A stretch of DNA of 64,000 bases from a virus. Taxonomy: Duplodnaviria; Heunggongvirae; Uroviricota; Caudoviricetes. The number at the start of each line of letters is the position of its first letter. Within the stretch, counting starts at the first letter, position 1. The position numbers and the translations under genes were made by a program. The stretch is from IMG/VR virus record IMGVR_UViG_3300022747_000014; one strand, 5' to 3'. This document shows positions 1,201 to 63,252 of the stretch, piece after piece. Under the pieces are notes generated by a model, which worked only from the letters and a program-made list of their open reading frames with translations, ran no database searches and was not told the origin of the DNA.

Positions 1201-1228
1201 TCTTTCCGTCTCCTAGTCAGAATTAAAT

Positions 1229-3990: not shown

Positions 3991-4014
3991 AATCAAACAG
4001 AAAGGAACTCGATT

Positions 4015-4581: not shown

Positions 4582-4588
4582 ATATCGA

Positions 4589-4667: not shown

Positions 4668-4673
4668 AACAGT

Positions 4674-4748: not shown

Positions 4749-4753
4749 AATAT

Positions 4754-7280: not shown

Positions 7281-7283
7281 GGA

Positions 7284-14092: not shown

Positions 14093-14132
14093 TGGAATCC
14101 TTGAAAATTTAATTTTACAATATTTATTGGGT

Positions 14133-14762: not shown

Positions 14763-14774
14763 TTACATTTATTT

Positions 14775-15641: not shown

Positions 15642-15656
15642 TCTATTAGGAAATCA

Positions 15657-21324: not shown

Positions 21325-22950
<1,626 letters not shown>

Positions 22951-40688: not shown

Positions 40689-43600
40689 TGGCAACTTATG
40701 CAAACGTAGGGCACATCCTATTAAAACGCGGAAACACCGCACAGATTTCTAATTACATCGGCCCATTGGGCGAGATGACAATTAACACTGATACTAAGCA
40801 GATTCATGTACATGACAATTCTACGGTTAGTGGATACGCTATTCTAGCAAGCCAAGAGCACGTAGAAAATCTCATTGCTAACGTATCAGCTGGCCCAGCT
40901 GGGCCACAGGGAAATGCCGGTCCACAAGGTGTTAGCATTACTAATTCCTATGTACAGGACGGTAATCTGTTTGTGACGCTAAGTAACACTCATGTTATTA
41001 ATACTGGATATGTACAGGGCCCAATTGGTCCAACTGGGCCTCAAGGTATACAGGGCAATATTGGAGCTACAGGAGCTACAGGCCCGCATGGTCCACAAGG
41101 TAATGTTGGTTTAACAGGACCACAAGGTATCCAAGGTAACATTGGTCTACAGGGCCAGCAGGGCATTCAGGGCATACAAGGTAATGTTGGACCACAGGGC
41201 ATTCAGGGAATACAAGGTAACGTCGGACCACAGGGCATCCAAGGCATACAAGGTATCAAAGGAGACCGTGGCGATCAAGGCATCAGCGTTACACTAAAAG
41301 GCAACGTAGCTGCCCCGGAAAATCTACCAATCTCTGCCAATGCGGGCGAAGCGTATATTGTTAACACCACAGGTAACTTATGGTTCTGGAACAGCACACT
41401 AAACAGTTGGGGTGATATTGGTCCTATCGTTGGCCCACGTGGTGACAAAGGTGATACTGGTGCACAGGGCATCCAGGGCGAACAGGGTATTCAGGGCATT
41501 CAAGGAGTCCAAGGAGACACTGGCGCCCAAGGCCCGCAGGGCATCCAGGGCGATCCGGGTGTACAAGGTATTCAGGGAGAAGCAGGCCCCGCAGGCCCAG
41601 CCGGAGAAGCAGGCCCCGCAGGACCCGAGGGACCAACTGGTCCGCAAGGTATTCAGGGCGAAACAGGACCGATTGGTCCCGAAGGACCACAAGGACCACA
41701 AGGTGATCCGGGTGCACCCGCTGATACTGGTAATATTAGATTCGTTACTGACTTCATTTACGATTTCAATGGTGTAACCATTGAAAATGCTGACCTATCA
41801 CACGGTGCAACGTCAGCAGTAGTTGTACCAGCCAATGGCTCTACCGATCCATTACAAGTTAATAACTTCTACGGCCCAGTGAGCATTATGAGCGGTGACA
41901 CTGGTATTACTAAGACTTGGGACTTCAGCCAGTTTGGTGATTTAACTATTCCAGGTTCCATTGATGCTCAAATAGGCAACGACTTAAACCTTTCAGTCTT
42001 TAACCCCACAGTTGAAGGACAGCCAGGCGGTGTTACTCTTACACTAAAGAATTATGATGTTGTCACTAACCAAAGAACAACACAATTCAGCCTTGGTCCA
42101 AATGACATCGAATTAATCACAGATTTTAGCGGTGCTCAAAAGTCGTGGACTTTTAACAAAGTCGGACATTTAGTTCCGGGTACTGATATCCTGCAAGACA
42201 TCGGCACACCGGCTAATCGTGTACGACACATTTATGTGGGCCCAGGATCTATTACCATTGGTAACAGTGTACTAACTGAATCTCAAACTGGTAAGCTAGT
42301 TGTTCCGGGCCTGACTCGTGCTACTGGCTACCACGCAGGTGAAACTCAAGATACTGGGGATCAAACATATCAGTTTACTCCTGATGCGTTCGTGTACATT
42401 ATTGATCACACATACTATTCTATCTTAGACGGACAGTATACACCAAACGGCAGTTATGTAAACGCTTCTTACGGTGCTACAGCAGACGGTGAAGGATATC
42501 TTGGTGATATTGGTATTGCTAGTCCAGGTAGTGGATGGAATGATGTAGAAGCTAATGGTGCTAAGAATAACGGCATGTGGGCTTACATTGGCTCAGACCG
42601 TGACCCATTTGGTAACTTTGTAAACACAGACTGGGTGCAGATTCCGTTTGCGGTTTACCCACAGGCCAGCGACACTGAATACGAATTCTCAACAGGTGGG
42701 AGCAGTGCTCTAGTACAGCGTACGGTTTCTTTCCCATTAGGCGAGGATGGCGACAAAGCAGGAACACTGGCATTAACACCTAGTGGACAAGTTTATGTTT
42801 CAACCGCAGATTACATGGGACCAAACGAGGGCCAAGGATATACTGTAGTTACTAGCGAAGGTTATAATAGAGGACAAAGCCAGGGTGGGACCCTAATGAG
42901 TGTTGTGATTGCTTTGGGTGATTACCCAGCAATTGATGCAGTACTACAAGCGGCATCATTACCTTTATCGGGTTGGCAAGTGTCAGGCAACGTAACTGAT
43001 GGTTACGTTCGTGATTGTATCGCCGAGCAGTGGACTGGCGACCGTTGGGCATTTACCTGGAATTATGTGCCGGGACAGGATGCCGACGGTTACTCACCAG
43101 GTGAAGAGTTTGAATTAGTGTACACCGTACCACAGGCTGCTATTTGGACACAAGTAGATAACTCTAAAACGGTTGCCGTTCCTTGGGGTATCATCAACAG
43201 AGCTGTTGATTTTGATCTATACACTGATAGCGGCGGTCCCAACGCCAACAAATATGCCGAAGTTTGGATGAAGGAAAACAACGAAGTATCCATTACAGCC
43301 GACGGTGACCACAATACCTGGCGCTTTAAGGCCAGCGGTGATTTACACTTTCCGGACGGTAGCATTCAAACAACAGCCTACACTGGTGGAATTAATGGCG
43401 CAAGTGATAGACTTGTCAGCGGCGATTACCAAGTAGTACTTGGTGCAGATGGTAATTTAACAGTACCTCGAAACATTACTGTAGGCGGGGTTAACGGTCA
43501 AGAAAGTCACTTTGTTGTTGATGGATCTAATTACTGGACCAGTATTCAGTGGATTAACTTCCCAGCACAGCCTTCGGACGTTACGCCGTTTGAATGCGAA

Positions 43601-44011
43601 TCACAACTACTAAGGGTATTCAAAGGCACAGGCGGAGTTGCTGGCCATGAAGAAATGGTAGCTGTTAGTGCAGTCACAGACAACGGCACACAAAACGGTT
43701 TGATGATCACTACATCAAACAACAAGATACCAGATGCTCCGTATAACGATGGAGTGGGCACACAGTACAACTGGATCTTTGGCGGTGACGGCAAGGTACA
43801 GTTCCCGGATGGTACTAAGCAAGCAACTGCCTATGTTCCACGCAATACTAACCTAGACGGTGGTGGTGCTAGCGTACATTACGAAACTGATACTGTGTTT
43901 GTTGATGGCGGATTTAGTTCAACAAGACACGGCGTTGCTGACGCAGCCTTTGACGGTGGCAACAGACTAACAGAAAACAACTTATACAACTTAGATGGTG
44001 GCGGAGCATAA
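40688..44011 (+). CDS. long tail fibre protein with collagen-like triple-helix segments
   Basis: 1107 aa. G-X-Y tracts at aa ~69-81, ~111-198 and ~248-343. C-terminal Gly/Thr/Asn-rich beta-structure typical of fibres. Confidence 0.8.
41018..41717 (+). repeat. collagen-like G-X-Y coding repeats (two blocks, 41018-41283 and 41429-41717)
   Basis: [10 protein letters not shown]... periodic 9-bp repeats. Confidence 0.85.
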
Positions 44012-45942
44012 TGGCAAATAAAATTCAACTTAGAAGAGACACAGCTACAAACTGGAGTCGCATTAATCCTGTACTTGCCGATGGCGAGCCAGGGTTAGAT
44101 ATTACTAACAATAAGATTAAGTTAGGTGATGGTACTACACCCTGGAACACACTAGGATTCCTAACTAGCCCAGAACATGCCCGATTAGTAAATGGCAATA
44201 AAGTATTGACTCTAGGCACAGACGGCAGAGTAACTGTGCCCGGTGGCAACAGTATTACAGACGCATCGGGTAAGATGGATCTGGTGGCAGCGGCAGGTGT
44301 TGAGATGGTCACAGACCGCGGCACCGTACAGTTTGGTGTTAACTTAGAAGCTCCAGGTTTACCTAGTCACTTTCACATTAACAAAGCAAGCTCGTTTGAT
44401 CTGTTCCTAGGTGATGACGCAAACTATGTTAAACTTCCATCACTAAGCGGCGTAGAAATAAAGGCCAGTGAAGACGGGGTAGGTACAGCTAAGTGGACAT
44501 TAGACGCACTAGGCAAGATGACATTGCCAGCAAACGGTGTTATTACAACTGTTCCAGGTTACACAGGAACAACGTTTAACATTGTTAATATTGTACAAGC
44601 AGATCCTGTATATCCTGTTGTTATCACTACATCAGTTGATCACGCATTAACTAGTGGAACTAAGATTAGAATTAGCGGTATCACTACTACCGTAGAATTA
44701 AACGACCAAGATTTTTATGTTACTACTCCTGCGTCGAATCAGCTTGAGTTGTATAGTGATCCTAACTGTACAATACCCGTGTTTGGAAGTACTAATACTC
44801 CGTACTTAACAGCTGGCAATAGAAGTGTTACTGTAACAGATGAAGCACTAGCAGGTAATAACCCAGGCTTTACTGATCGCAGTATGCAGTTCTTTGGAAA
44901 TGGATATGCACAAACTCCAGCAAGCACAGACTTTAATATTGGTACTGGTGACTTTGCTGTTAGTTTCTGGGTATATCAAGACAGCTACGCAAACAATCCA
45001 CGTTTGTTCAGCTTTGGTACATGGAATCAAACCAACCCGTTGGCAGTTAGTTCAGAAAACGGTATGCTGTATTTCTGGATGAACGGTAGCCTATTTGGTT
45101 ACGGTATTGGCGGCTCCCTAAGTCTTAACACGTGGCATCACTTCCTAATCACTCGCTACAACGGTCACATGTATTTGGGATTAGACGGTACTGTTTATAA
45201 TCAGTGGACTGACTCAACTGATATTCCTTCAGGTACAGTTCCTCTATGCGTTGCGAACCAAACAGCACACGATGCTGGCCTAGTTGGCTATATGCGAGAC
45301 TTTAAGTTTAACGTTGGACAAGGTGTTGACCTAAGCTCAGGTAACTACACTGTTCCTAGTGCTCCTGCTACAGTAGACGCAGGCTACACTAAGTTGCTAT
45401 TAGTAGACTACCCATCTGACAGTTCTAACTCTGCACTAGTAGGCGGCGGCGGTACCGCACTAACAGAATTTGCAGGAGCCGATTTAACTATTGCTCTTGA
45501 CAGTCCAGTTAACACTGATCCTGGTAGCATATACTTGCGTTCAGGAAGCTCAATGATGGCAGTCAATGGTAGAGATGATACCGTTGGGATAGCTAATCCT
45601 GGCGGATCGTATCCATTTGCTACTACAGGGCAAGAAACTATCTTCATTGATGCTACAACAAGTGTTAACGGTATCGGTATTACTAACGTAACTAATAACT
45701 TGTTTCTAGTAACACAAGCTGACGGTTATACAGGCACTGACGCACAAACTATTAGCCTACCTGTACCAACCCGTGCTGGTATAGAAATAACTGTAATAAA
45801 CACTAGTCAGAGTGAAGTTGGTGTAGTAGGATGGCCAGGATCACCATACGGAATGTCCCCAGGATGGAGCATAAAACTTATATCTATAGACCTCCCGGGA
45901 CTTGGATTTATATGGTGGGTAACTAGCAACTTTAGTTGGTAA
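44011..45942 (+). CDS. tail fibre protein (conserved fibre N-terminal domain)
   Basis: 643 aa. N-terminus IQLRRDTATNW...NPVLADGEPGLD...KLGDGTTPWNTL is shared with ORF 46767. Confidence 0.75.
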   Translation: MANKIQLRRDTATNWSRINPVLADGEPGLDITNNKIKLGDGTTPWNTLGFLTSPEHARLVNGNKVLTLGTDGRVTVPGGNSITDASGKMDLVAAAGVEMVTDRGTVQFGVNLEAPGLPSHFHINKASSFDLFLGDDANYVKLPSLSGVEIKASEDGVGTAKWTLDALGKMTLPANGVITTVPGYTGTTFNIVNIVQADPVYPVVITTSVDHALTSGTKIRISGITTTVELNDQDFYVTTPASNQLELYSDPNCTIPVFGSTNTPYLTAGNRSVTVTDEALAGNNPGFTDRSMQFFGNGYAQTPASTDFNIGTGDFAVSFWVYQDSYANNPRLFSFGTWNQTNPLAVSSENGMLYFWMNGSLFGYGIGGSLSLNTWHHFLITRYNGHMYLGLDGTVYNQWTDSTDIPSGTVPLCVANQTAHDAGLVGYMRDFKFNVGQGVDLSSGNYTVPSAPATVDAGYTKLLLVDYPSDSSNSALVGGGGTALTEFAGADLTIALDSPVNTDPGSIYLRSGSSMMAVNGRDDTVGIANPGGSYPFATTGQETIFIDATTSVNGIGITNVTNNLFLVTQADGYTGTDAQTISLPVPTRAGIEITVINTSQSEVGVVGWPGSPYGMSPGWSIKLISIDLPGLGFIWWVTSNFSW

Positions 45943-45951
45943 GGATAAACA

Positions 45952-46740
45952 ATGATTAATAAAATAGAATTAGACAAACTAAGTGTCCCTAGTTATCTTC
46001 AGTTAGATAAACTAACAGGCGAGCTAAACAAAAACTTTGAAACACTTGCAACAGCAATACAAGGTGTTGATGCTGAAGGTGTTGTAACAATTCCTGGCCC
46101 CCAAGGCGAGCGTGGTGAGCAAGGTTTACAGGGTTTACGAGGCGAACCTGGTACTGCTGGCAAGGACGGCAAAGATGGTGTTGATGGTGTCAACGGACGA
46201 GATGGACTTCCGGGAGCAGTGGGCACCACGGGTATTCAAGGCCTTCCGGGTAAAGATGGAAAAGACGGTCTCCCGGGAACAGCGGGTAAGGATGGTGCTC
46301 AAGGCCCCGCAGGTCCGCAAGGAGTGGCAGGACCCGCTGGTGCCCAAGGTCCTATAGGTCCAGCAGGCGTAGGTATCAAAGGATTCGCTAGCGGTTATGT
46401 AAATGCCGGGCAGTTTGTTACCTTAGACAATCTTAAGTTTACTGTAACAACTAGCGGAAATAGAGGACTGTCGTGTGCTACAGTAAGCGGCACAGCAACT
46501 CTTAGTATATCTGCTACTTATAGTTGCAACGGTGGCGGCAACGGGCATTCAACAGCGTGGCCGGGCGCTACCTATAACACAACACCCAGCGGAAGTTGGT
46601 TTGGATATCACTTTCCCAACGCAGGCGACGGGTCAACATATATTGTAAACGATTACAATAACGGCAGGGTCTATAGAATCATATTAATGATTGGCCCATA
46701 TTACAACAACAACTTCATCAGCATCGAAAGATTGCTCTAA
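45952..46740 (+). CDS. collagen-like repeat protein (fibre-associated)
   Basis: 262 aa. G-X-Y from aa ~49 to ~142 (nt 46096-46380). Confidence 0.7.
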
Positions 46741-46766
46741 ATAAATAAGAATACGGAGAAACAATA

Positions 46767-48374
46767 ATGTCAAGCAAAATTCAATTGAGACGCGATTCGG
46801 CAGCAAACTGGACCGCAACAAACCCTGTACTAGCCCAAGGTGAGCCAGGTTTAGAAACAGATACAAACAAAGTCAAATACGGTGACGGCTCAACAGCTTG
46901 GAACCTACTTGATTATGCCGCAGGTGGATCAGGCGGGGCGGGAGACTTTAACACAGGATTTACTGACGGTGTTAACGATAACACATTCCACTTTGTTCGC
47001 GAACAAGGCAAGCGAGAATTTACCTTTGAAACAGAAGGCTACAAGAAGTTTGAGATTACGCTAACTGCTCCTATGGTAGCCGATATCAACAACGGAAACT
47101 TGACATTTACTGACAGCGATACGCCACAAATGGCTGATGTATGGCTAACTTGGACCCGTGAAAATCAAATCTACTTTTACCTAAAAGGTGATTACGACAT
47201 TGGAAACTTTAGCAGTTTCTTCAGCAATCTTGCTAATCCAGCTCCGGGTGTATATGTAGCAAATAACGCACCTGTACCGTTTGCCCCAGGTGATCAAATC
47301 GTTGTTAAGTACTGGTCAGAAGGCACAACTTATATTGGCAGCAACTATGACCGCTACAGCACATTTATTCCCGATGTAACCGAATCCACCGCTGACAACA
47401 CAGTAACTATCAGCTTAGCTGAATACACTTGGTTAGGTAGCGGGCCAGGTAGTGCTCTTGAAGCATTTCTAGATCCAGCTAATCTAGCCAAACAGTCTAT
47501 TGTTTTTAAACAAAATCAAGCAAACGATAACCGAAACATTACCGGTGTAGTTGACAATAACGATGGTACTATTACTATTACATTTGACGGTGCCGCATAT
47601 CAAAGTAAAACAACAGATACAGCTTCATTTACCTATACCGCAACAGATACACGCACTGACAACTGGCAGATTACTTTACCAATGTCGGTGTATCCGACAT
47701 TTGCCAGTGAAGTAACATACCCGCTTGGAACAACCACTAACAAATATACTGGTAGTGCTTATCGTAGTGGATATATTACTATCAATGGCGGAAGTCCAAT
47801 TGATTTTAACTGGTACGGTAACAGTAACGGAACAACTGAATTTTATCTAAACTGGGCTCAAACAGCACAAAGCTACAACCAAGGCGACACTATTGCGGTT
47901 ACTTTCTATCGTAGCTATACACAAATTCAACTTGACATCTACCGTCCAGGTACCGCACAGTCTAACTGGAACAACGGTTACAAGTGGTTTGATTGGAAAG
48001 ATGACATTGCTACTGAATACAGTCCTGGTTTAGGCAACGGTGTAGCAGGTGGAACAGGTCAATACTTGATGCAGGTATACCGTCAGCCAATCGGTGACTG
48101 GACTGCCAGTAGCGGTTCTTTAGCAAGTAGTTTTGGTTGGACAGGATTAGGTAGCAATCAGAGACAACCTCGAGATCCTTACAAGAATGACAGTGTAAGC
48201 AACTGGGGCGATAGCGCACAGAGTTGTTATCCAATGTACGACTTTAGTGACCGTGGTATTGTATTTTTCAGTAATAACACATATTACGACTGGAGTATCA
48301 CATACAAGGTTCGTATTATCTACCGCTTTGATCTAATCATTGGCGAAGAAGACTACGGTTGGTTCGACTGCTAA
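46767..48374 (+). CDS. tail fibre protein (paralogous N-terminal domain to 44011)
   Basis: 535 aa, N-terminus IQLRRDSAANWTATNPVLAQGEPGLETDTNKVKYGDGSTAWNLL. Confidence 0.75.
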   Translation: MSSKIQLRRDSAANWTATNPVLAQGEPGLETDTNKVKYGDGSTAWNLLDYAAGGSGGAGDFNTGFTDGVNDNTFHFVREQGKREFTFETEGYKKFEITLTAPMVADINNGNLTFTDSDTPQMADVWLTWTRENQIYFYLKGDYDIGNFSSFFSNLANPAPGVYVANNAPVPFAPGDQIVVKYWSEGTTYIGSNYDRYSTFIPDVTESTADNTVTISLAEYTWLGSGPGSALEAFLDPANLAKQSIVFKQNQANDNRNITGVVDNNDGTITITFDGAAYQSKTTDTASFTYTATDTRTDNWQITLPMSVYPTFASEVTYPLGTTTNKYTGSAYRSGYITINGGSPIDFNWYGNSNGTTEFYLNWAQTAQSYNQGDTIAVTFYRSYTQIQLDIYRPGTAQSNWNNGYKWFDWKDDIATEYSPGLGNGVAGGTGQYLMQVYRQPIGDWTASSGSLASSFGWTGLGSNQRQPRDPYKNDSVSNWGDSAQSCYPMYDFSDRGIVFFSNNTYYDWSITYKVRIIYRFDLIIGEEDYGWFDC

Positions 48375-48375
48375 T

Positions 48376-49047
48376 ATGATTGAAAAACGTCCTGCTAATA
48401 CCAGAGGCGTTATTGATAAGAAAGGTTCTATATTAAGTTATAGGACCTTTCATTTTCAAGAGTACTTCAACTTTGACTACTTGAACTTTGGGGCACTAGA
48501 AACTATCAATGACGACAGAGTAGAACCTGGATATCATGTCGGTCGTCACCGTCACGTTAACAGGGAAATCTTTGGTTATGTTGTAGATGGTCCCTGCTAC
48601 CACAAGGACGACACGCAAACTATAGAAATACCTTCGGGTGCCGTTCAGCGTATGTGCGCCGGATCAGGCATGTTCCACGGCGAAGGTAACGCCAGCGATA
48701 AACCCATACGTTATCTACAGTTATGGATCCGAAGTGAAGTTGAAAATGCTACTCCTGTGTATAGCTGGCATCAATTTACCCGAGAAGACAAGTTAAACCG
48801 GTTCTGCGATATAACAGCACAGCTACCTATTAGAGCAGATGCCGGTCTACTTGCTGGGATTTTTACCAAACCCTTTAACTATTCTATCAACGGAGATAGA
48901 CGTTACTATGTTTACATTGTGCGAGGCACCGGTACAATCAACAATGCATTGTTCTCTGAAGGAGATGGCTTTGCCTACACAAACGAAACCAGTATCGGCC
49001 TTACCGTAACTGAAGAGTCAGAGCTCATATTATTTGATCTAAGATAA
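48376..49047 (+). CDS. cupin/pirin-like protein
   Basis: HVGRHRHVNREIFGYVVDG...H cupin-type metal-binding pattern. Start trimmed to MIEKRP. Confidence 0.5.
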   Translation: MIEKRPANTRGVIDKKGSILSYRTFHFQEYFNFDYLNFGALETINDDRVEPGYHVGRHRHVNREIFGYVVDGPCYHKDDTQTIEIPSGAVQRMCAGSGMFHGEGNASDKPIRYLQLWIRSEVENATPVYSWHQFTREDKLNRFCDITAQLPIRADAGLLAGIFTKPFNYSINGDRRYYVYIVRGTGTINNALFSEGDGFAYTNETSIGLTVTEESELILFDLR

Positions 49048-49068: not shown

Positions 49069-50130
49069 ATGTTAACAACAATACAGGATGCAATAAAACA
49101 ATACCTACCCGCCAAGAAGAAAACTTCTAGTAGCGGCTGGACTAGTTTTAACGCAGTATGTTGTGAACACAATGGCGAAAGCCGTGACACTCGTGGGCGT
49201 GGTGGAATTATTTCTAATCCCAATGGTAGCGTCAGTTATGCTTGTTTTAACTGCAATTTCAAAGCCAACTACACACCAGGAAGACATCTTAACTATAAGT
49301 TTCGAAAACTCCTGAGTTGGCTCGGAGCAGATGAGAACTCCGTTAAGCGTTTAGTAATTGATGCGATCCGTGTTAAAGAGCTGGTTGCTCCAGAAGAACT
49401 AAAATCAGAGCCAGCCGAAGAAATTAAATTCCAACCACGTCCACTGCCTGTCGGCGCAAAGAGCTTTACAGAGTGGAAGACCTTTTTGCAATTAACAGAT
49501 GATTCTTATGTGTCCCCAGATTACCTAAAGGGCGCAGTTGAGTATGTGTACAAACGTAAAGGTAATCTGCTTGAAAATTATGAATTTTACTGCACAGATG
49601 ACACTGAGCACAACATGCACAAAAGGGCCATTATTCCTTTTACTTGGCACAATGAACTAATAGGATACACAGCCAGGGCATGGGACGATAAAATAAAACC
49701 CAAGTACCATAACAGTTATGAACCCAATTTCGTCTTTAACATGGATCGACAAGCCCAAGCTAACAAGTTTGTTATTGTTGTGGAAGGCCCGTTTGACGCG
49801 ATGGCAATTGATGGCGTTGCTATATTGTCTAATGAGTGCAGCGAAGTGCAGGCAGACATTATTGACAGCTTGGGGAAAGAAGTTATCGTAGTTCCGGACT
49901 TTGATATTAAGATTGTAAAAGGTAAAGAAGTATGGGCCGGATCCACGTTAATTGAACAAGCAATTGAGTATGGTTGGAGTGTTAGTTTTCCGGTATGGCA
50001 CGAGGAAGTTAAAGATGTGTCCGAAGCAGTACACACATATGGACGATTGTTTACATTAAAAACAATATTAGATGCCAAACAATCGAGTAGGTTAAAGATA
50101 GAGTTAATGCGTAAACGCATACATAGTTAA
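49069..50130 (+). CDS. DNA primase (zinc-ribbon + TOPRIM)
   Basis: CCEHNGESRDTRGRGG...CFNCNF zinc-binding region; TOPRIM-like VVEGPFDAMAIDG...VVPDFD. Confidence 0.7.
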   Translation: MLTTIQDAIKQYLPAKKKTSSSGWTSFNAVCCEHNGESRDTRGRGGIISNPNGSVSYACFNCNFKANYTPGRHLNYKFRKLLSWLGADENSVKRLVIDAIRVKELVAPEELKSEPAEEIKFQPRPLPVGAKSFTEWKTFLQLTDDSYVSPDYLKGAVEYVYKRKGNLLENYEFYCTDDTEHNMHKRAIIPFTWHNELIGYTARAWDDKIKPKYHNSYEPNFVFNMDRQAQANKFVIVVEGPFDAMAIDGVAILSNECSEVQADIIDSLGKEVIVVPDFDIKIVKGKEVWAGSTLIEQAIEYGWSVSFPVWHEEVKDVSEAVHTYGRLFTLKTILDAKQSSRLKIELMRKRIHS

Positions 50131-50132: not shown

Positions 50133-51575
50133 ATGAATAAAGAATATAACTCAGAGATACAAAAACTATTTTTAGAAATGATGTTGCAGGACGCACAAAA
50201 CTTTGTGCGTGTGCAAAACATTTACAATCCTGAAAACTTTGATCGTAGTCTACGTGAAACGGCCAAGTTTATCAGTGAATACAGTGACAAATATAGATCC
50301 TTGCCAACAGCTGAACAGATTTTAGCAACAACAGGCACAGAACTAACAGTATCGGCAGACTTATCTGCACACAACGAATGGTTCATTGATGAGTTCGAAA
50401 ACTTTACCAAACGTCAAGAACTAGAACGTGCAATTCTCAAAGGTGCAGACTTACTTGAAAAAGGCGACTTTGCTCCAATTGAAAAACTAATCAAAGATGC
50501 AGTACAAATTAGCCTAACAAAAGACTTGGGTACTGATTACTTTGCTGACCCTAGTGAACGTATTAACAAATACTTTAATAGCGGAGGACAAGTAAGCACT
50601 GGTTGGCCACAGTTAGATAGATTGCTCTATGGCGGTTTCAGTCGCGGTGAGCTCAATATCTTTGCAGGTGGCTCGGGCTCTGGTAAATCTTTGGTTATGA
50701 TGAACTTGGCATTAAGTTGGTTACAATCCGGACTTAGTGGAGTTTACATTAGCTTAGAACTTAGTGAAGAACTGTGTAGCTTGCGTACTGATGCTATGTT
50801 GTCTGGTATGAGTACCAAAGACATTCGCAAGGACATTGACACAACCACACTTAAAGTCAAGATGGTTGGCAAGAAGTCTGGTAGCTATCGTGTTAAAGCC
50901 TTGCCTGCACAAAGCAACATCAATGATATTCGTGCGTTCTTAAAAGAATATCAAATACAAACAGGAAACCAAGTCGACTTTGTTATGGTTGACTATTTGG
51001 ACTTGTTAATGCCAGTTAGTGCCAAGGTTAGTCCCAACGACTTGTTTGTTAAGGACAAGTATGTGTCAGAAGAACTACGTAACTTGGCAAAAGAACTGGG
51101 CGTATTGTTGGTTACAGCAAGTCAGTTGAACCGTAGTGCTGTTGACGAAGTTGAATTTGACCACAGTCATATTAGTGGTGGTATTAGTAAAATCAACACT
51201 GCTGACAACGTATTTGGTATCTTTACTAGTAGAGCTATGCGTGAACGAGGCAAGTATCAAATTCAATGTTTGAAGTCACGTAGTAGTACTGGCGTTGGGC
51301 AGAAAATCGATCTTGAATACAACATTGAGACTATGCGTATCAGTGATCCGGGACTTGAAAATGCAAGCTCTGGATTTGGGCCACCACCGGTTGCCAGCAT
51401 CATGAGTCAGATTAAGAACAAAGCAGCCAGTGACGATAGTGCACCTAAACCCTTTGAAAGAGCAACAGGTACACCTGCATGGGAAAAAGGCCCACAAGGC
51501 CCCAAAGTAACTGGCGAAGCACAGAACGCAGAATTAAGAAAAATGTTATCGGAGCTTAAGAAATCCAATGAGTAA
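50133..51575 (+). CDS. replicative DNA helicase (DnaB/T4 gp41-like)
   Basis: Walker A FAGGSGSGKSL, Walker B VDFVMVDYLDLL, RecA-like core. 480 aa. Confidence 0.8.
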   Translation: MNKEYNSEIQKLFLEMMLQDAQNFVRVQNIYNPENFDRSLRETAKFISEYSDKYRSLPTAEQILATTGTELTVSADLSAHNEWFIDEFENFTKRQELERAILKGADLLEKGDFAPIEKLIKDAVQISLTKDLGTDYFADPSERINKYFNSGGQVSTGWPQLDRLLYGGFSRGELNIFAGGSGSGKSLVMMNLALSWLQSGLSGVYISLELSEELCSLRTDAMLSGMSTKDIRKDIDTTTLKVKMVGKKSGSYRVKALPAQSNINDIRAFLKEYQIQTGNQVDFVMVDYLDLLMPVSAKVSPNDLFVKDKYVSEELRNLAKELGVLLVTASQLNRSAVDEVEFDHSHISGGISKINTADNVFGIFTSRAMRERGKYQIQCLKSRSSTGVGQKIDLEYNIETMRISDPGLENASSGFGPPPVASIMSQIKNKAASDDSAPKPFERATGTPAWEKGPQGPKVTGEAQNAELRKMLSELKKSNE

Positions 51576-52668
51576 ATTTTGTGCAGACATACACAACAAC
51601 CTAGCATTGACGTTAACTAGCCGTGGTATACAAGTTGGTGCATGTTGTTGGTACAAAGATACATCGATTGCACAAATTGGTGACGATGTTTGGAACACTC
51701 AAAAGTTAGTAGACCTGCGTGAACTAAACAAAACCGATCAGTTGCATAGCAAGGGCTGTGAGCAGTGCATCTATATGGAAAAACATGGCGGCACAAGTCG
51801 ACGTACAGGGGTTAACTCTTACTACAATTCAACTGCAACTGATCTGCCGGGGCCACGTGGCCTAGAGATTAAGATTGATTACACCTGTAACATTGCCTGC
51901 GTATACTGTGGTCCATACAACAGTACTAAATGGCGGCTAGAGGAAAACACTCCCAAGACTGTGTTTCCTATTAGACTTAGTAAACCCGACATTATTGCAC
52001 TGCTAGATACACTTGATCTTTCTAATTTAGATAACATACATTTTTACGGTGGAGATCCACTGTTTACTGACACGCACGAAGTTATCTTAAATTACATAGA
52101 TCAACGAGTTGGATTAAAGAACATATATGCATGGTACAACACCAATGGCACTATCAAGGTATCGCAACGTGTATTAGATCTCTGGGCAAAGTGTCGTTTG
52201 ATCAAAGTGTTCTTTAGCATTGACGATGTTGGTCCAAGATTTGAGTTTATTCGTTATGGTGCGGTGTGGAGCGAAGCTGAAGAAAACATGCTGTGGTACA
52301 AGGACACCTGCCCAGTTAACACAATGTTTACCATTCAGCCTACTATGAGTTGTCTAAACACTTTACACCATTACGAGTTGTTAAACTGGAAAAAGAAATA
52401 CTTTGATACTAACCGCCTGGGTGATGTAACAGATGTAACTAGACACAATGTATTTAGGTCATTTGAATTGGATTCTATGCCCGATGAATTGATGAAAAAA
52501 TGTCTAGACTATAATAAAGATGACCCGTGGTTCAACACCTTTGTGCAGTCATTTAAATTTAACGCTGAAAAATACAACCACACCAAAGCTAAGATAGCAG
52601 AACTTAGCGCAAGACGAAATTTAGATTTTGCTAAAATCTTCCCGGACCTGGCTCCATATTTTTGTTAA
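51568..52668 (+). CDS. radical SAM enzyme with Cys-rich N-terminal extension
   Basis: CNIACVYC (Cx3Cx2C) at aa 107-114, GGDPLF glycine-rich motif; N-terminal ACCW / CEQC cysteines. Overlaps the helicase stop by 8 nt. Confidence 0.7.
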   Translation: MSKFCADIHNNLALTLTSRGIQVGACCWYKDTSIAQIGDDVWNTQKLVDLRELNKTDQLHSKGCEQCIYMEKHGGTSRRTGVNSYYNSTATDLPGPRGLEIKIDYTCNIACVYCGPYNSTKWRLEENTPKTVFPIRLSKPDIIALLDTLDLSNLDNIHFYGGDPLFTDTHEVILNYIDQRVGLKNIYAWYNTNGTIKVSQRVLDLWAKCRLIKVFFSIDDVGPRFEFIRYGAVWSEAEENMLWYKDTCPVNTMFTIQPTMSCLNTLHHYELLNWKKKYFDTNRLGDVTDVTRHNVFRSFELDSMPDELMKKCLDYNKDDPWFNTFVQSFKFNAEKYNHTKAKIAELSARRNLDFAKIFPDLAPYFC

Positions 52669-52953
52669 AACCCTTTCTTACTATTTTCGCTAAATATAAA
52701 CAATTGGAGTAAATCTTGCAGAAACGTACTCGTAGTATATTAGATGAGCTGGATACCTTGTTAAGTCATAAAGACAGAGCAAGTCTGGTTGAGAGTCGTG
52801 CTATCCATGTGATACAGGGCGCCATCAATCTAATAAATTTTATACGTGAAAATTACGATAGTGAGCAAGCAGGTGAGTTAGAACGCAGATTACTTAACAG
52901 TATTCGAGCACAAGAACCTGATAAATTCCGCCGCGGCGTTAGGAGATTTAAGG

Positions 52954-53754
52954 GTGAAGATTAAAGATGTTATCAATGAAGCTTGGGGCATGGGCTATGA
53001 CCCCAAGACCGGCAGAGCTAAGGGTGTACTAGGCAATGTAATCAGCAATGTTGTTGGTGCAGAAAACTACGGCGACACTGGCGAATGGAATATCAATCGC
53101 AAAGATAAAGCAGCGGCTAAACAGTACGCCAAGAATGTTGTAAATAATATCAAGGGCAATGCCGGTGCAGCCGCTGATGCAATGGTTAACAAAACTGAAG
53201 TTCCTGCTCCTCAAGCCACTAAATTCCAGCAACAGTTTGAATTAGTAGATAACGATCCTCCTACTGTGCAATACAAGAACAACACATTCCAACGTGATCA
53301 ATATGGCAAATGGATTGATTTTAGAACTGGTAAAGAAGCACCTGAACGTTTTACATCGATTCTAGATAAAGTTAGCCCACTTGCAACTTCTACAGAACCT
53401 GCAGGTACAAGTTTACCAGTAGGTGCAACTGGTAAGCCCACAGGTGGTCCAAAAACAGCAGCCAAAAAGCCATGGGCTCCAAGATCAACAGGTCCAGCAG
53501 TATGGAGAAGTAACCGTCCTGCTGCTACTGCACCTGCTGCTACACCCACACAGGCCAAAGCACGTATGATTAGAAACAATGATGGCAGCATCACTGTAAC
53601 TGACAAGCTGGGCAAGAAATGGTCTATGCCTGCCAACATTAATGCATGGCGCGACGAATCCGGTACATTATATCAACCCGGTCATCCAGAATACGAAAAG
53701 CTATCTAATTTTGTTAAAAATCTACGCGAGACATCAAGTCCTAAAAGACACTGA
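52954..53754 (+). CDS. hypothetical protein (low-complexity, Ala/Pro/Thr-rich centre)
   Basis: 266 aa. Confidence 0.5.
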   Translation: MKIKDVINEAWGMGYDPKTGRAKGVLGNVISNVVGAENYGDTGEWNINRKDKAAAKQYAKNVVNNIKGNAGAAADAMVNKTEVPAPQATKFQQQFELVDNDPPTVQYKNNTFQRDQYGKWIDFRTGKEAPERFTSILDKVSPLATSTEPAGTSLPVGATGKPTGGPKTAAKKPWAPRSTGPAVWRSNRPAATAPAATPTQAKARMIRNNDGSITVTDKLGKKWSMPANINAWRDESGTLYQPGHPEYEKLSNFVKNLRETSSPKRH

Positions 53755-58084: not shown

Positions 58085-59149
58085 GTGGGTTTCGTCACGA
58101 AAGAACTCCGAAATCAAATATTAATGGAAATAATTAAGCACACCAATGGGTTTCCTTATGCATGGAAAGCCGGTAGGGTTGAACAACTAATACGTTCGAT
58201 ATTAGAAAACAAAGCAAGAGAACAGCTAAACGTCAACAGGGTAATGATCATTAACCCCACATGGATGCACGAAGACAATATCTCTCAAGACATCATTGAC
58301 AAGAACCCAGACTTTATTATCTGTCACAATTTTGTTGACCCTGTAGTTCCTAAAATATTTGAAGCCATTGAAAAATCTGGCAAGCCTTATTTGATACTAG
58401 GCAATGCTGTGCAGTATCGTATTGACTTCTGGGCTATGGTATGTGATTTGTATTTTCAAAATTACGAAGAACACGATGTTGCCATTAGAGACACGGCACG
58501 TAAGTATATCTGCTTGAATCGCAAGCCACATCCGCACAGGATACAGTTAGTGCACCATCTTCTAGATGCAGGACTACAAGGTAGCGGACACATTAGTTTA
58601 GGGTTACCTGGTGACAGGGCCATTGTAGTCGATACTGAGTTTAGGGAAGAACAAGGTATTGCAGACGAATATGGAAATCTCGGCGTTGAGGAAACCTTTG
58701 TTAGTAACAAGATACGCAATGATATTTTCAGCTTGGGTAATATGAATGTGTGGAAAGAATCATTCCTGTGCTTAGTAACTGAAACAGAGTTTAGTAATGT
58801 TGATCCTTACAATTTCTTTATAAGTGAAAAGACTTGGAAGCCTATTCTGGGCATGCGCCCATTCTTTGTATACGGTCAACCAAAGTTACGTGAGCATTTA
58901 AAACAATCGGGGTTTGACGTATTTGAAGATATATTTGATTATCGTTTAGTTGACGAAATGGCAGCTGATCCCATGCGCCAAGCTCAGTATGCACAGGTTG
59001 CAGTTGATGCAATTCAACGTGTCAAAGATCCAGCGGCAGAATATCAACGATTGTTTGGTCGATGTCAGCAAAACAAAAACAACTTTCGCAACTATGTATA
59101 CCAACAGTGGGATAAACTGTACAAATTGGACCTAACCAATTATGTTTGA
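58085..59149 (+). CDS. hypothetical protein; paralog of 59903-60865 (transferase-like?)
   Basis: C-terminal FISEKTWKPILGMRPFFVYGQPKLREHLKQSGFDVFEDIFD aligns with FWVTEKTARCLAIGKPFVLISGTGSLQNLKSQGFNIFDEWLN of ORF 59903. Confidence 0.55.
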   Translation: MGFVTKELRNQILMEIIKHTNGFPYAWKAGRVEQLIRSILENKAREQLNVNRVMIINPTWMHEDNISQDIIDKNPDFIICHNFVDPVVPKIFEAIEKSGKPYLILGNAVQYRIDFWAMVCDLYFQNYEEHDVAIRDTARKYICLNRKPHPHRIQLVHHLLDAGLQGSGHISLGLPGDRAIVVDTEFREEQGIADEYGNLGVEETFVSNKIRNDIFSLGNMNVWKESFLCLVTETEFSNVDPYNFFISEKTWKPILGMRPFFVYGQPKLREHLKQSGFDVFEDIFDYRLVDEMAADPMRQAQYAQVAVDAIQRVKDPAAEYQRLFGRCQQNKNNFRNYVYQQWDKLYKLDLTNYV

Positions 59150-59906
59150 AGTACCAAGTTGGTCAATGATATCTAATCCGTTTTCAATTCGCCATCAAGC
59201 TGGATTTGAAACAGATAAACTGTTAATTACAGTAGGCGACAGTTGGACCTACGGAGATAGCCTTGGCAATACCAAAGTCCGTGAGGGACGAGATGACACT
59301 GAATACCGCCTTGATCACGTTTACGGACAGTTGATGGCCCGGACTATGGACGTTGATTGGATGAATCTAGCATTGCCCGGTGGATCCAATATATTAATGG
59401 TAAACTGGGTGTCGCTGTTGTTAGACAGGTTAGACTCATTTCAGACGTACAAAGACATAACATGCGTTGTGACATTAACCGAATCGGGCAGGCACGAAGA
59501 TCTACAGTTAATAGACAAAAGTTTAGGTACACAGCAGCGTGTATTAGAAAAAATATTATTTGAAACATACGGAAAACTAACATTCATAATGCTAAAGCAT
59601 CCGCATATTAAGTTTCTAGTGGCTCACAACTTTACAGATGGTGCGAGTTCAATGCCTTGCCAGGAGTCCTGGTTAGAAGTCATGCTGGGTAAACAAATAC
59701 AAAACGGAACACATATTGTTGTTAGTGAGCATATAGATCAAATGAACTATGATTCACGTTTTCCCGACGTACTAGACATTATGGATCGTGCTGCTGCTAG
59801 AATGGACTTGTTAGACCAATGCCAATACTGTTATAAAGAAGACAGTCGTCATCCTAACGAACACGGTCATGCTATTTGGGCCAACTATCTATTAAGTAAA
59901 CTATGA
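59142..59906 (+). CDS. SGNH/GDSL-family hydrolase (esterase)
   Basis: LLITVGDSWTYGDSLG, the GDS(L) block I motif. Confidence 0.6.
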   Translation: MFEVPSWSMISNPFSIRHQAGFETDKLLITVGDSWTYGDSLGNTKVREGRDDTEYRLDHVYGQLMARTMDVDWMNLALPGGSNILMVNWVSLLLDRLDSFQTYKDITCVVTLTESGRHEDLQLIDKSLGTQQRVLEKILFETYGKLTFIMLKHPHIKFLVAHNFTDGASSMPCQESWLEVMLGKQIQNGTHIVVSEHIDQMNYDSRFPDVLDIMDRAAARMDLLDQCQYCYKEDSRHPNEHGHAIWANYLLSKL

Positions 59907-61602: not shown

Positions 61603-63252
61603 ATGGCTATTCTTCAAATTAGTAGAATTCAGCATAGACGTGGTTTACAACAAGATTTACCACAACTAGCTAGTGCAGAACTTGGGTGGAGTATCGATCA
61701 ACGTAGGTTGTACATTGGTAACGGAACCGTGGAGGAAGGCGCTCCTACAGAAGGAGTAACAGAACTCTTAACAGAACACAGCGATCTGTTTAGCTTCTTG
61801 GGCTTTTATACCTTCAAAGGTTTATCAGCAGGCTTTACAGTCGAAACCGGACCTGATCCGTTGCACCCTGTTGTGCGTACACTACAAGACAAGTTAGATG
61901 ATTATGTTAGTGTTAAAGACTTTGGAGCAAAAGGTGACGGTTTTACAGATGACACCGCAGCTATCCAACGTGCAATTGATCGTGTGTACGCAGGTAACCA
62001 ATTGACGTTATTGGAAAACAAGCACAGAACAATTAACTTTCCAGCTGGTACATATATTATTAGCGACACACTAAACCTGCCACCGTATAGTCGTTTACAA
62101 GGAGAAGGTAAAAACACCACTGTTATTACTAGTACAATGGCCAAGCCATTGATGCGTCTAGTTGACGAGTTTTACCAATACGGTACATCGTTTGGGCAAG
62201 CAAATCCTGTAACCAGTGCGACACCCACTGCGGCAGAGTATCACATCAGTGACATGAAGTTTCATCACCAACGTCCACAGGGTGACCAAAGTTGCTTTGT
62301 AATCGACGGCTGTTATGGCACATACTTTAACAGAGTTCAGTTTAGAGGTATGGCACATACTACAACACCAGACCTTGCAGTCTATGGCGGTACGGCGGCA
62401 TATGATGTAGACAAAGGTACCGGCGTTGCTGGTGTATCGTGTAACAATTTAAGCTTCTATGAGCCTGCAGAAAACATTGTGTTTAGCCAATGTGACTTTA
62501 TTGATCACAACTATGGTATAGAACTAAACAACACAACCATTGGCGTTAGTATCACAGGCAGTTATTTTAATCACTTGTATTACGGCGTAACAACAGGCAA
62601 AGACAGTGCAGGTCAACAAACTGCCGGTGTTGCTATGTTTGACAACTATTTTCACTACACTGCCGCTGAAGCGGTTTATTGTGGCACAGACTCTAGAAGT
62701 TTTGTAAGTCAAGCTAACTATTTTGACCGTTCTGGCCTAGCTGACTACGAAGCAGACGCCCCTGTTATTAATCCAACTGGTCATGCACAGACTCCTGTTA
62801 TTTCATTCTTCAGCGACAACAACTTCAGCGTTGGAGACACATTCCAACGTGTAGTCACAGGTGACTTGTCTTTTCCGTATGTTGAAACAAACAACTATAC
62901 TAGCTACATCTTTGGCCAAGACCGCGGATTAGTCAATGGTAAAATCACAAGCTCCCCGGGACTTGTGGTCAGCTTGCCCACTAGCGGCACTTATGTATCT
63001 GCTGCACTACTTCAAATTCCATCTTCGTATGTTGACTTAAACGTAAGATACAGAATAACATCAGCCACTGGCGAGTGTTCTGGTACGTTGCAAGCAACGG
63101 GCTTTGGTGGAGCATACAACTACTCTGATGAGTGTGTTGAATCCGGAAGCTCTGGAGTTTCTCTAAGAGCAAATCCAACAACAGGTGACATTGAATATAC
63201 TTCAACCAGCAATGCCACTTTAACTTACAGTCTAAATTTTTTCACTAATTAA
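61603..63252 (+). CDS. tailspike/depolymerase with pectate-lyase-type beta-helix
   Basis: VKDFGAKGDGFTDDTAAIQRAIDRV is the classic Pectate_lyase_3 / phage tailspike N-terminal signature. 549 aa. Confidence 0.7.
   Translation: MAILQISRIQHRRGLQQDLPQLASAELGWSIDQRRLYIGNGTVEEGAPTEGVTELLTEHSDLFSFLGFYTFKGLSAGFTVETGPDPLHPVVRTLQDKLDDYVSVKDFGAKGDGFTDDTAAIQRAIDRVYAGNQLTLLENKHRTINFPAGTYIISDTLNLPPYSRLQGEGKNTTVITSTMAKPLMRLVDEFYQYGTSFGQANPVTSATPTAAEYHISDMKFHHQRPQGDQSCFVIDGCYGTYFNRVQFRGMAHTTTPDLAVYGGTAAYDVDKGTGVAGVSCNNLSFYEPAENIVFSQCDFIDHNYGIELNNTTIGVSITGSYFNHLYYGVTTGKDSAGQQTAGVAMFDNYFHYTAAEAVYCGTDSRSFVSQANYFDRSGLADYEADAPVINPTGHAQTPVISFFSDNNFSVGDTFQRVVTGDLSFPYVETNNYTSYIFGQDRGLVNGKITSSPGLVVSLPTSGTYVSAALLQIPSSYVDLNVRYRITSATGECSGTLQATGFGGAYNYSDECVESGSSGVSLRANPTTGDIEYTSTSNATLTYSLNFFTN

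Follow-up and report, generated by a model that had tools for sequence, protein, structure and literature searches.

A radical-SAM protein with a predicted N-terminal twitch domain, carried as optional cargo at the helicase junction of an uncultured phage

The radical-SAM gene and its family

The analysed stretch of phage DNA (64,000 nt, hereafter the window) contains a complete ORF for a 366-aa protein, located between the gene for a DnaB-type replicative helicase and that for a conserved 82-aa protein (Table 1). The ORF starts within the end of the helicase gene, and a GGAG sequence can be read 13 nt 5' of its ATG.

Table 1. Position and basis of the features at the helicase junction of the window
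Feature	Position	Strand	Basis
DnaB-type replicative helicase, left slot border	50133..51575	+	phrog_19 E 1e-73; Pfam DnaB_C
N-terminal-twitch radical-SAM protein, complete ORF	51568..52668	+	ORF list; 366 aa plus stop, ATG start
8-nt overlap ATGAGTAA, helicase stop/radical-SAM start	51568..51575	+	sequence; helicase TAA at 51573-51575
Predicted N-terminal twitch domain, aa 1-90	51568..51837	+	invariant Cys; domain profile vs PDB; AF2 secondary structure
Radical-SAM partial-barrel core, aa ~98-260	51859..52347	+	holds GGDPLF and invariant FSIDD
CX3CX2C motif (C107, C111, C114; CNIACVYC), predicted SAM-binding [4Fe-4S] cluster	51886..51909	+	sequence; inside PF04055 match
GGDPLF, aa 161-166	52048-52065	+	sequence; GGE-like SAM-binding motif
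Mostly helical, family-specific C-terminal domain, aa 261-366	52348..52665	+	invariant W274, D286, R350
82-aa conserved protein, right slot border	52716..52964	+	phrog_11854, annotated 'virion structural protein'

A preliminary description of this DNA had recognized a radical-SAM enzyme from the CNIACVYC and GGDPLF motifs, with a core starting at about aa 100, and both points were borne out by profile searches. Pfam Radical_SAM (PF04055) matched aa 106–253 with an E value of 6.7e-11 (43.1 bits against a cut-off of 29.5). The NCBIfam model NF033640 (N_Twi_rSAM) matched with 176.6 bits, a narrow margin over its curated cut-off of 170 (E = 8.1e-52), and the alignment covers aa 3–365 of the protein and positions 3–398 of the 398 in the model. 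Because of the Pfam E value, the full-length NF033640 E value and the hundreds of homologs, the assignment is far beyond chance, and these comparisons confirm that the product is a genuine radical-SAM enzyme. The core corresponds to a partial (beta/alpha)6 TIM barrel with a GGE-like motif. The three cysteines of the CX3CX2C motif are invariant in 57 homologs. The FSIDD motif at aa 216–220 is invariant in the family, and the protein would be expected to cleave SAM reductively to a 5'-deoxyadenosyl radical. An AF2 model of the whole protein reached a pLDDT of 93.8 and a pTM of 0.90. The C-terminal domain (aa 261–366) has no counterpart among solved structures.

This profile match places the window protein, as a new member, in a known but functionally uncharacterised family. 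Clustering of N_Twi_rSAM at 50 % identity gives no fewer than 2,866 clusters (E <= 1e-30). No characterised member was found in the literature, nor was any functional study on NF033640, the N-terminal twitch, phage radical-SAM enzymes and glycans, or the radical-SAM protein of KVP40. The window protein shares with NF033640, over the full length, the N-terminal four-cysteine twitch, the CX3CX2C core and the helical C-terminal region, but it lies at the periphery of the family. Core members reach 297–356 bits, are about 400–550 aa long and are encoded in tandem arrays of four to eight paralogs, whereas the window gene is a single copy in a phage hot-spot. Some JGI records label homologs 'AslB', and such names are generic.

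The protein might instead be an ordinary housekeeping radical-SAM enzyme, either the NrdG activase of a class III ribonucleotide reductase (RNR) or QueE of the 7-deazaguanine pathway. Two profile matches point in this direction: phrog_626 (anaerobic RNR small subunit; E = 1e-3, aa 106–190) and the QueE model TIGR03963 (E = 1e-4). Both are confined to the region of the cluster motif and fall far under the family cut-offs (22.1 bits against 260.1 for TIGR03963), and the full-length match is to NF033640 instead. No NrdG family appeared among the NCBIfam matches at E <= 10, in agreement with the preliminary description, which had doubted both NrdG and QueE and had regarded a confident match to an NrdG-like activase as the result that would make the gene ordinary. 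Furthermore, NrdG is a protein of about 150–200 aa paired with nrdD, and neither NrdG nor QueE possesses an N-terminal twitch or a C-terminal helical domain; no NrdD was present among the annotated window ORFs (the annotation covers part of the ORFs). A class I/II-type RNR (Ribonuc_red_lgN/lgC) is present in one relative. The profile scores effectively refute the housekeeping explanation, which is barely credible.

The specific profiles of other radical-SAM families were not matched either. The MoaA model TIGR02666 reached 18.4 of the 284 bits required by its cut-off, and no viperin family (NF038283) was among the NCBIfam matches of the protein. BlsE, anSME, SkfB, MoaA and viperin are the best structural matches of the core, at 12–18 % identity. 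The auxiliary domains of the first four are C-terminal, whereas that of the window protein is N-terminal; the auxiliary cluster of MoaA is held by three cysteines in contrast to the four-cysteine site predicted here, and viperin is a single-cluster enzyme with a C-terminal NTP-binding extension and no twitch domain. Judged from these comparisons, the window protein is not NrdG, QueE, MoaA or viperin.

A permuted twitch domain

The preliminary description had also proposed that the cysteine pairs in ACCW (aa 25–28) and CEQC (aa 64–67) form a second cluster site. The idea of a second cluster-binding module was supported, and the choice of cysteines had to be revised. The invariant set consists of C5, C26, C64 and C67: none of these residues is replaced among 57 family members or among 20 diverse N-terminal domains, at identities as low as about 17 %. 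C5 had been overlooked, and C27, the second cysteine of ACCW, had been given too much weight; it is kept only within the close clade and is serine in 80 % of distant members. Together with the core motif, the protein has seven invariant cysteines. E71, R78 and R79 in the N-terminal domain are invariant as well.

A search of the PDB with a profile of the N-terminal domain gave BtrN as the sole match (E = 3.8e-4). The matched segment, residues 169–237, is the C-terminal twitch domain of BtrN, and all four twitch cysteines align with chain positions 169, 187, 232 and 235. A second, weak alignment matched aa 41–81 to the SPASM region at the C-terminus of ChlB. In the AF2 model, C5 is followed by a beta-hairpin (strands 11–17 and 20–24) and C26, then by a helix (45–55), and C64-x2-C67 opens a further helix (65–72). 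Sequence and model agree with a twitch-type domain, that is, a truncated SPASM domain (hairpin 11–24, helix 45–55, CxxC 64–67), in which metal binding is predicted. The seven-cysteine SPASM domain with two auxiliary clusters (PF13186) was not matched by the protein even at E <= 10, and only four auxiliary cysteines are conserved as against the seven of the SPASM motif.

SPASM and twitch domains are described as C-terminal extensions of the radical-SAM core (PMC9012708). The domain of the window protein is N-terminal, with all four cysteines preceding C107, and it is therefore a permuted variant. The auxiliary [4Fe-4S] cluster of BtrN is ligated by four cysteines, BtrN carries out a two-electron oxidation of an alcohol, and full cysteine ligation is expected for an electron-accepting role of the cluster (PMC9012708). 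These data support the view that the cysteine-rich N-terminal ~95 aa form a second cluster-binding module homologous to the twitch domain of BtrN. We have high confidence in the two-cluster, N-terminal-twitch architecture as predicted from sequence; cluster binding itself is probable by homology, and the four-cysteine site could in principle hold zinc or a [2Fe-2S] cluster instead.

The helicase junction as a variable slot

The 8-nt overlap with the helicase gene, from which translational coupling had been proposed, is physically real, and start/stop overlaps also occur in close relatives (1 nt in locus L001, 4 nt in loci L003 and L033). The 26 loci fetched through the radical-SAM gene are all occupied, a circular result because of the way they were collected, and the idea of an always-occupied slot was rejected. 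Among 49 loci fetched through the helicase (71–82 % identical to that of the window), the junction between the helicase and the 82-aa gene is empty in 28, contains an N-twitch radical-SAM gene in 12, another radical-SAM gene in four and other cargo in five. The more distant phage PA5oct (helicase 48.6 % identical) also has an empty junction, in which the homolog of the 82-aa protein begins some 65 nt beyond the helicase match.

The genome context in relatives, suggested earlier as a check, thus revealed that the radical-SAM gene is not a conserved neighbour of the helicase gene, and a functional meaning of the proposed coupling is not supported despite the genuine overlap. The overlap marks an insertion hot-spot rather than a functional pairing with the helicase, and the radical-SAM gene is optional single-copy cargo of a variable slot, not a replication factor. 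A tempting over-reading is hereby corrected: a gene that overlaps a helicase gene need not be functionally coupled to it. The location in a hot-spot is compatible with an accessory role in host interaction or anti-defence, which may be considered as a candidate.

The same survey shows that the 82-aa protein is independent of the radical-SAM protein, since its gene adjoins the helicase gene without any radical-SAM gene in PA5oct and in 28 of the 49 relatives; the 82-aa protein was accordingly rejected as an obligate substrate or partner. Some relatives (for example loci L008 and L009) pair the radical-SAM protein with a ~177-aa Rossmann-like protein, for which PDB sequence searches gave only spurious PPR matches. 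Relatives carry NifU/IscA/DUF1289 Fe-S assembly genes and extra radical-SAM genes 6–8 kb downstream; tblastn found none of these in the window, and a linked Fe-S supply module was dropped as a candidate. A scan of 48.0–55.5 kb for promoters and terminators gave hits at or below the shuffle expectation.

Genomic contexts and candidate chemistry

Relatives in cultured phages are remote. Neither megablast with the 49.0–53.8 kb region nor tblastn with the 366-aa protein found a match among 50,697 GenBank phages, and it was only by structure (BFVD) and by way of a core-family paralog that relatives in cultured phages came to light. The structural matches were to phi-pp2 (TM 0.70) and KVP40 (TM 0.62). 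The KVP40-type proteins named 'MoaA/NifB/PqqE family' (phi-pp2 gp255/gp256 and KVP40 Q6WHP4) and the radical-SAM proteins encoded by Vibrio phage K566 have an N-terminal twitch followed by a radical-SAM core, like the window protein, and the KVP40-type and K566 matches to the family and N-terminal-domain profiles display a C..PF...CC...CxxC pattern. They differ from the window protein in sequence (16–17 % identity), in genome location and in their occurrence as pairs or triplets. The N_Twi_rSAM family, which KVP40-type phages also carry, is common among the uncultured phages of aquatic habitats.

Beside the tandem arrays of core members lie genes for a DegT-type sugar/cyclitol aminotransferase (7b0d, E = 1.5e-48), for an NDP-sugar epimerase (WbgU, E = 2.5e-27) and for a TobZ/NovN-type O-carbamoyltransferase (E = 1e-48); GT2, AsnB-like amidotransferase, LbH transferase and carbamoyltransferase genes were also found. 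In PDB sequence searches, K566 gp0304, a neighbour of a radical-SAM array, gave a weak WbbM-like glycosyltransferase match (E = 0.004), and K566 gp0307 gave no match. BtrN and BtrS follow the logic of a radical-SAM dehydrogenase and then an aminotransferase. BtrN, the 2-deoxy-scyllo-inosamine dehydrogenase of the butirosin pathway (PDB 4M7S/4M7T), shares with the window protein the radical-SAM core and a homologous twitch domain. Five invariant arginines (R78, R79, R224, R229 and R350) and five invariant tryptophans, with a sixth nearly invariant, would fit an anionic sugar ligand.

The analogy with BtrN points to oxidation chemistry on a carbohydrate substrate, and for the substrate our confidence is not high. 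The window holds a large NDP-sugar/glycosyltransferase cluster at 10–21 kb, about 30 kb from the radical-SAM gene; SDR enzymes of the window are encoded at 10023-10964, 12627-13547 and 15657-16697. A study of pelagimyophages notes radical-SAM cassettes in regions where LPS glycosyltransferases abound (PMC7029224). Against the substrate assignment, the sugar contexts come from distant paralogs (23–29 % identity), and the radical-SAM gene of the window stands alone, with no adjoining aminotransferase, SDR or glycosyltransferase gene. Substrates often differ among paralogs within radical-SAM families.

The enzyme might also be a RiPP-like or anSME-like maturase that cross-links, epimerises or oxidises a residue of a phage or host protein, such as a virion component or a small precursor from a neighbouring gene. 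The adjacent 82-aa gene, present at junctions devoid of radical-SAM genes, does not depend on the radical-SAM gene. In addition, a Pfam profile search detected no RiPP recognition (RRE) or PqqD-like domain in the protein, the gene is not accompanied by any small ORF rich in cysteines or repeats, and the array neighbours are sugar-modifying genes, so that we consider a maturase unlikely. A further explanation, put forward in the preliminary description, is that the enzyme acts on phage DNA, on a nucleotide or on a defence-derived nucleotide signal such as a viperin product, and thereby aids replication or immune evasion. The analysis yielded no evidence in favour of this link. The helicase gene is not a conserved neighbour; the viperin, QueE, NrdG and MoaA comparisons given above yielded no significant match; no DpdA, hydroxymethylase, kinase or similar gene is among the annotated window ORFs; and core family members reside in sugar rather than nucleotide clusters. 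This explanation seems distinctly improbable.

Taken as a whole, the best explanation is a two-cluster N_Twi_rSAM enzyme that performs a BtrN-like oxidation of a carbohydrate-type substrate and serves as accessory phage cargo, to which we tentatively assign a probability of roughly 0.4. In this mechanism, the cluster held by C107, C111 and C114 would bind SAM and cleave it reductively to generate the 5'-deoxyadenosyl radical. By analogy with BtrN, the radical would most likely abstract a hydrogen from a C-H beside a hydroxyl group of an NDP-sugar, a cyclitol or a glycan residue. The second electron would pass to the auxiliary [4Fe-4S] cluster, presumably held by C5, C26, C64 and C67 of the circularly permuted twitch domain, resulting in a keto product that other enzymes (an aminotransferase, a reductase/epimerase or transferases) could process further. 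The phage gene, inserted in the hot-spot between the helicase and 82-aa genes, would be read through from the helicase gene.

Auxiliary-cluster radical-SAM enzymes perform chemistry that is otherwise hard to achieve. The permuted BtrN-type twitch, the status of the gene as swappable cargo and the amino-sugar-type clusters around the family core make the enzyme experimentally tractable. Together, these three results suggest NDP-sugars and cyclitols as candidate substrates; Rossmann-like and SGNH-like proteins and aminotransferases are suggested as candidate partners, and natural variants with and without the radical-SAM gene are available for comparison.

A broader reading, which is quite unlikely at present, is that, in this aquatic and uncultured lineage of phages, the helicase/82-aa junction swaps radical-SAM cassettes for oxygen-independent radical tailoring of sugars on DNA, on the virion or on the envelope of the host, and that these cassettes are determinants of host range, superinfection exclusion or anti-defence. 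The cargo concerned could be N-twitch proteins, belonging to two or more deeply divergent types, or SPASM-type proteins, either of which may come with Rossmann-like and SGNH-like helpers. If this reading were true, it would provide the first biological function for N_Twi_rSAM and would reveal phage chemistry of a new class, for counter-defence or host interaction.

Gene, family and the N-terminal domain

The radical-SAM reading frame given in the preliminary description coincided exactly with the ORF call, and all four motifs named there are present in the protein (table). A Pfam search placed Radical_SAM at residues 106–253 (E 7e-11); SPASM went unmatched even with E<=10 allowed. The sole full-length NCBIfam match exceeding its curated cut-off was NF033640, "N_Twi_rSAM, twitch domain-containing radical SAM protein" (residues 3–365; 176.6 bits versus a cut-off of 170). 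The remaining NCBIfam matches were all weak and confined to the cluster-motif region, and PHROGs offered nothing more specific than "radical SAM domain-containing protein" families. NF033640 is already modelled by NCBI, catalogued, large and uncharacterized; the protein is therefore not of a new kind, and none of the evidence points to anything categorically new. Assignment to NrdG or QueE, already doubted in the preliminary description, has next to no probability, being refuted by the profile scores and the architecture. QueE reached 22 bits versus a cut-off of 260 and MoaA 18 versus 284, and the NCBIfam matches included no viperin and no NrdG family; a confident NrdG match would have made the gene ordinary.

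Features of the window and of related viral loci (positions in the window unless a locus is named)
Feature	Position	Strand	Remarks
Radical-SAM ORF	51568..52668	+	366 aa, ATG start
CNIACVYC (C107-x3-C111-x2-C114)	nt 51886-51909	+	sequence
GGDPLF	aa 161-166	+	sequence
ACCW	aa 25-28	+	sequence
CEQC	aa 64-67	+	sequence
DnaB-type replicative helicase	50133..51575	+	phrog_19 E 1e-73, Pfam DnaB_C; upstream of radical-SAM gene
Primase	49069..50130		phrog_47; precedes helicase
82-aa gene	52716..52964	+	phrog_11854
SDR epimerase/4,6-dehydratases, three	10023-10964, 12627-13547, 15657-16697		sugar cluster
Split transketolase-like TPP enzyme	10961-11482, 11433-12056		sugar cluster
Sugar C-methyltransferase	17407-18630		Methyltransf_13/23/14; sugar cluster
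DctP-type TRAP-transporter solute-binding proteins, two	253-1200, 7884-8843	+	each E about 2e-40
GroEL/Cpn60-type chaperonin	21334-22950	+	538 aa, E 4e-74
tRNA cluster, six genes (Arg-tct, Lys-ctt, Cys-gca, Met-cat, Val-tac, Gly-tcc)	121-4827	+	
Pirin/quercetinase-like bicupin	48340-49047	+	Pirin E 7e-16, Pirin_C_2 E 9e-13
Weak DUF6071 protein	37653-38357	+	E 7e-4
Weak GDSL-lipase-like protein	59142-59906	+	E 3e-4
Mtd_N tail-fibre-like genes, four	40688-44011, 44011-45942, 46767-48374, 61603-63252	+	N-terminal Mtd_N
NifU_N and IscA-like Fe-S_biosyn	L001 16817-17486; L003 18552-19242; L008 17625-18657		relatives
IscA-like only	L009 13345-13668		relative

In an alignment of 57 homologs, with identities down to about 30%, the invariant cysteines are C5, C26, C64, C67, C107, C111, and C114. 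The preliminary description had suggested that the ACCW and CEQC cysteines might bind a second cluster or zinc; C26, C64, and C67 are indeed invariant, but C5 had been missed and C27, the second cysteine of ACCW, is kept in the close clade only. For the N-terminal domain a separate profile was built, with 20 diverse members as input, among them cellular paralogs 17–24% identical, and run against all PDB chain sequences. Its sole match was BtrN (E 3.8e-4), at residues 169–237, the C-terminal twitch domain. The four invariant N-terminal cysteines align with BtrN positions 169, 187, 232, and 235, reportedly the actual cluster ligands in the BtrN structure. An independent but weak signal agrees with the BtrN match: residues 41–81 align to the SPASM region at the C-terminal end of ChlB. 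In BtrN, which catalyses the two-electron oxidation of an aminocyclitol alcohol, four cysteines ligate the auxiliary [4Fe-4S] cluster, and SPASM and twitch domains are described as C-terminal extensions (PMC9012708). The twitch domain is C-terminal in BtrN and N-terminal in the window protein.

The AlphaFold model, a confident one (pLDDT 93.8, pTM 0.90), places C5, a β-hairpin (11–17, 20–24), C26, a helix (45–55), and C64xxC67 at the start of helix 65–72 in this order, a predicted topology that is the one expected for a twitch domain. The protein is very probably a two-cluster radical-SAM enzyme with its twitch domain circularly permuted to the N-terminus, and identification of this module as a permuted BtrN-type twitch domain is new here. 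[quoted passage not shown]

The helicase junction as a cargo slot

Because the helicase TAA stop lies at 51573–51575, the two genes overlap by 8 nt (ATGAGTAA), as originally reported; in close relatives the overlap is 1 nt (L001) or 4 nt (L003 and L033). Transcription and translation of the radical-SAM gene are in line with the helicase. The coupling proposed in the preliminary description is physical, but according to the evidence not functional.

Across the relatives, the helicase is 62–77% identical to that of the window, and the radical-SAM protein is bimodal (63–72% or 28–38%) regardless of backbone similarity; in L009 the helicase, the 82-aa protein, and the radical-SAM protein are 68, 80, and 33% identical, respectively. 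Backbone and radical-SAM gene do not diverge in step. The slot between the helicase and 82-aa genes may also hold a Rossmann-like protein of ~175–192 aa, an SGNH/DUF6071-like protein of ~205 aa, a second paralog with the N-terminal four-cysteine twitch domain (N-twitch), or a SPASM-type radical-SAM protein. Since these loci had been sampled by their radical-SAM gene, a second, unbiased sample was anchored on the helicase (49 distinct loci, helicases 71–82% identical, 82-aa gene downstream). The junction was empty in 28 of the 49 (gap 11–71 nt) and held an N-twitch radical-SAM gene in 12, only another radical-SAM gene in 4, and other cargo in 5. The three closest helicases (82%) lack a radical-SAM gene, with two empty junctions and one single 193-aa ORF, and the subtype of the window was found in only one locus (L186, 76%). 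In PA5oct and its relatives, the nearest cultured phages, the slot is empty (helicase match ending at 148341, 82-aa homolog starting at 148406). The non-parallel divergence, the variable contents, the mostly empty slots, and PA5oct led us to conclude that the radical-SAM gene is optional cargo in an insertion hot-spot. Its position as swappable cargo at a defined site, and not as a replisome partner, is new here, and the 82-aa protein is not a partner dependent on it.

The lone occupants in the four loci with another radical-SAM gene are SPASM-type proteins of about 335–367 aa. In the relative L005, a 14-kb stretch contains four radical-SAM genes (6372–7328, 10001–11128, 11115–12131, and 19172–20002): one N-twitch, two with C-terminal SPASM matches, and one 276-aa form.

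Counter-defence cargo typically shows such hot-spot behaviour, and the core has a resemblance to viperin and MoaA. A role in nucleotide or DNA modification or in anti-defence is nevertheless distinctly improbable, as the protein has no match to such a family, no pathway partner was found among the annotated window ORFs, and the helicase adjacency is not conserved.

Candidate carbohydrate chemistry

We propose that the protein may oxidize a carbohydrate-type substrate by oxygen-independent radical chemistry, as BtrN does, or tailor it in a related reaction. We put the probability of a carbohydrate substrate at about 0.4, and that of the exact chemistry lower. The evidence is direct as far as the architecture; for the remainder we infer from four lines. 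The twitch domain appears BtrN-like and fully Cys-ligated, a state that in BtrN-type enzymes accompanies electron acceptance in two-electron oxidation (PMC9012708). The invariant arginines (R78, R79, R224, R229, and R350) and five invariant tryptophans, with a sixth almost invariant, in the 57-homolog alignment would in our interpretation suit an anionic carbohydrate, for example an NDP-sugar, as the ligand.

Core members of NF033640 (297–356 bits) form tandem arrays of 4–8 paralogs in Pseudobdellovibrio, Bdellovibrionales, Haliscomenobacter, Bacteroidales, and some large viral contigs, with GT2 glycosyltransferase, AsnB-like amidotransferase, carbamoyltransferase, LbH transferase, AMP-binding enzyme, and DUF6071 neighbours. 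The viral array of L095 includes a DegT-family aminotransferase (best PDB match glutamine-scyllo-inositol transaminase, E 1.5e-48), a WbgU-like NDP-sugar epimerase (E 2.5e-27), and a NovN/TobZ-type O-carbamoyltransferase (E 1e-48). In the BtrN/BtrS step of aminoglycoside biosynthesis, a PLP aminotransferase likewise acts after a radical dehydrogenase. The window itself has an NDP-sugar and glycosyltransferase cluster at 10–21 kb, and radical-SAM cassettes were noted in a pelagimyophage variable region with many LPS glycosyltransferases (PMC7029224). The sugar-pathway context of the family core is new here. Weaknesses of the proposal are that this context is drawn from distant paralogs and that the window protein is a solo gene at the periphery of the family.

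Fold searches, with which Foldseek against PDB was concordant, aligned just ~200 residues per match and found no solved counterpart for the C-terminal ~105 residues; peptide-modifying and sugar-acting enzymes scored equally well. A peptide or protein maturase would suit the SPASM/twitch clade and the secondary RiPP-maturase matches, but is unlikely: no RRE domain was detected in the protein, no precursor gene travels with it, and the adjoining 82-aa gene is independent of it.

Neighbouring genes and distribution of the family

The window sugar cluster (10023–20212, both strands) is large and also encodes Methyltransf_24, GT34-like, GT17, and GT9 proteins and an FkbM methyltransferase; its gene content resembles a pathway leading to a deoxysugar that is branched or methylated. 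In L104 (16286–18025), a B12-binding radical-SAM methyltransferase (best NCBIfam family KedN5, 238 bits, under the cut-off of 700) adjoins, on a viral contig, an N-twitch array of seven copies. SGNH/DUF6071-like proteins adjoin N-twitch genes in relatives and in one Haliscomenobacter array, and the DUF6071 and GDSL-lipase-like proteins of the window are possible distant helpers. Fe-S assembly genes lie 6–8 kb downstream of the slot in relatives, L008 additionally having two small DUF1289 proteins; tblastn found no NifU, IscA-like or DUF1289 gene in the window. The genes for the DctP-type proteins count as auxiliary metabolic genes, a possible hint at the host group. Between the tail-fibre genes and the primase is the bicupin gene, with a predicted TTG start that falls within the end of the fibre gene before it; L001 keeps the bicupin gene in this position. 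Mtd_N is the N-terminal domain of the major tropism determinant. Collagen repeats occur in one of the Mtd_N genes and in a fifth gene (45952–46740, plus strand), and the tail-fibre-like genes include one with a Laminin_G_3 and one with a pectate-lyase-like domain; together (40688–48374, 61603–63252) they form a host-recognition region flanking the replication genes.

Tblastn with the window protein found no match in GenBank phages. A metagenome protein database held about 50 close homologs (57–99% identity) and a broad group at 31–40%, and at least 486 IMG/VR viral contigs carry a relative. BFVD gave full-length structural matches (TM 0.7–0.89) to uncultured Caudovirales proteins, the range reaching Vibrio phage phi-pp2 (TM 0.70) and KVP40 (TM 0.62), both annotated "MoaA/nifB/pqqE family protein". 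The N-terminal cysteine pattern recurs in phi-pp2 gp255 and gp256 and in three K566 proteins. An exhaustive profile search yielded 2,866 clusters (50% identity, E<=1e-30), some of them double-domain fusions about 800 aa long. P0137–P0143 and similar proteins (about 790–1,120 aa) have two stretches matching the family profile; most of those with a reported best stretch fit fused tandem N-twitch units, and such fusions echo the tandem gene arrays. Literature searches turned up no work on the function of the N_Twi_rSAM family, which is large and phage-rich.
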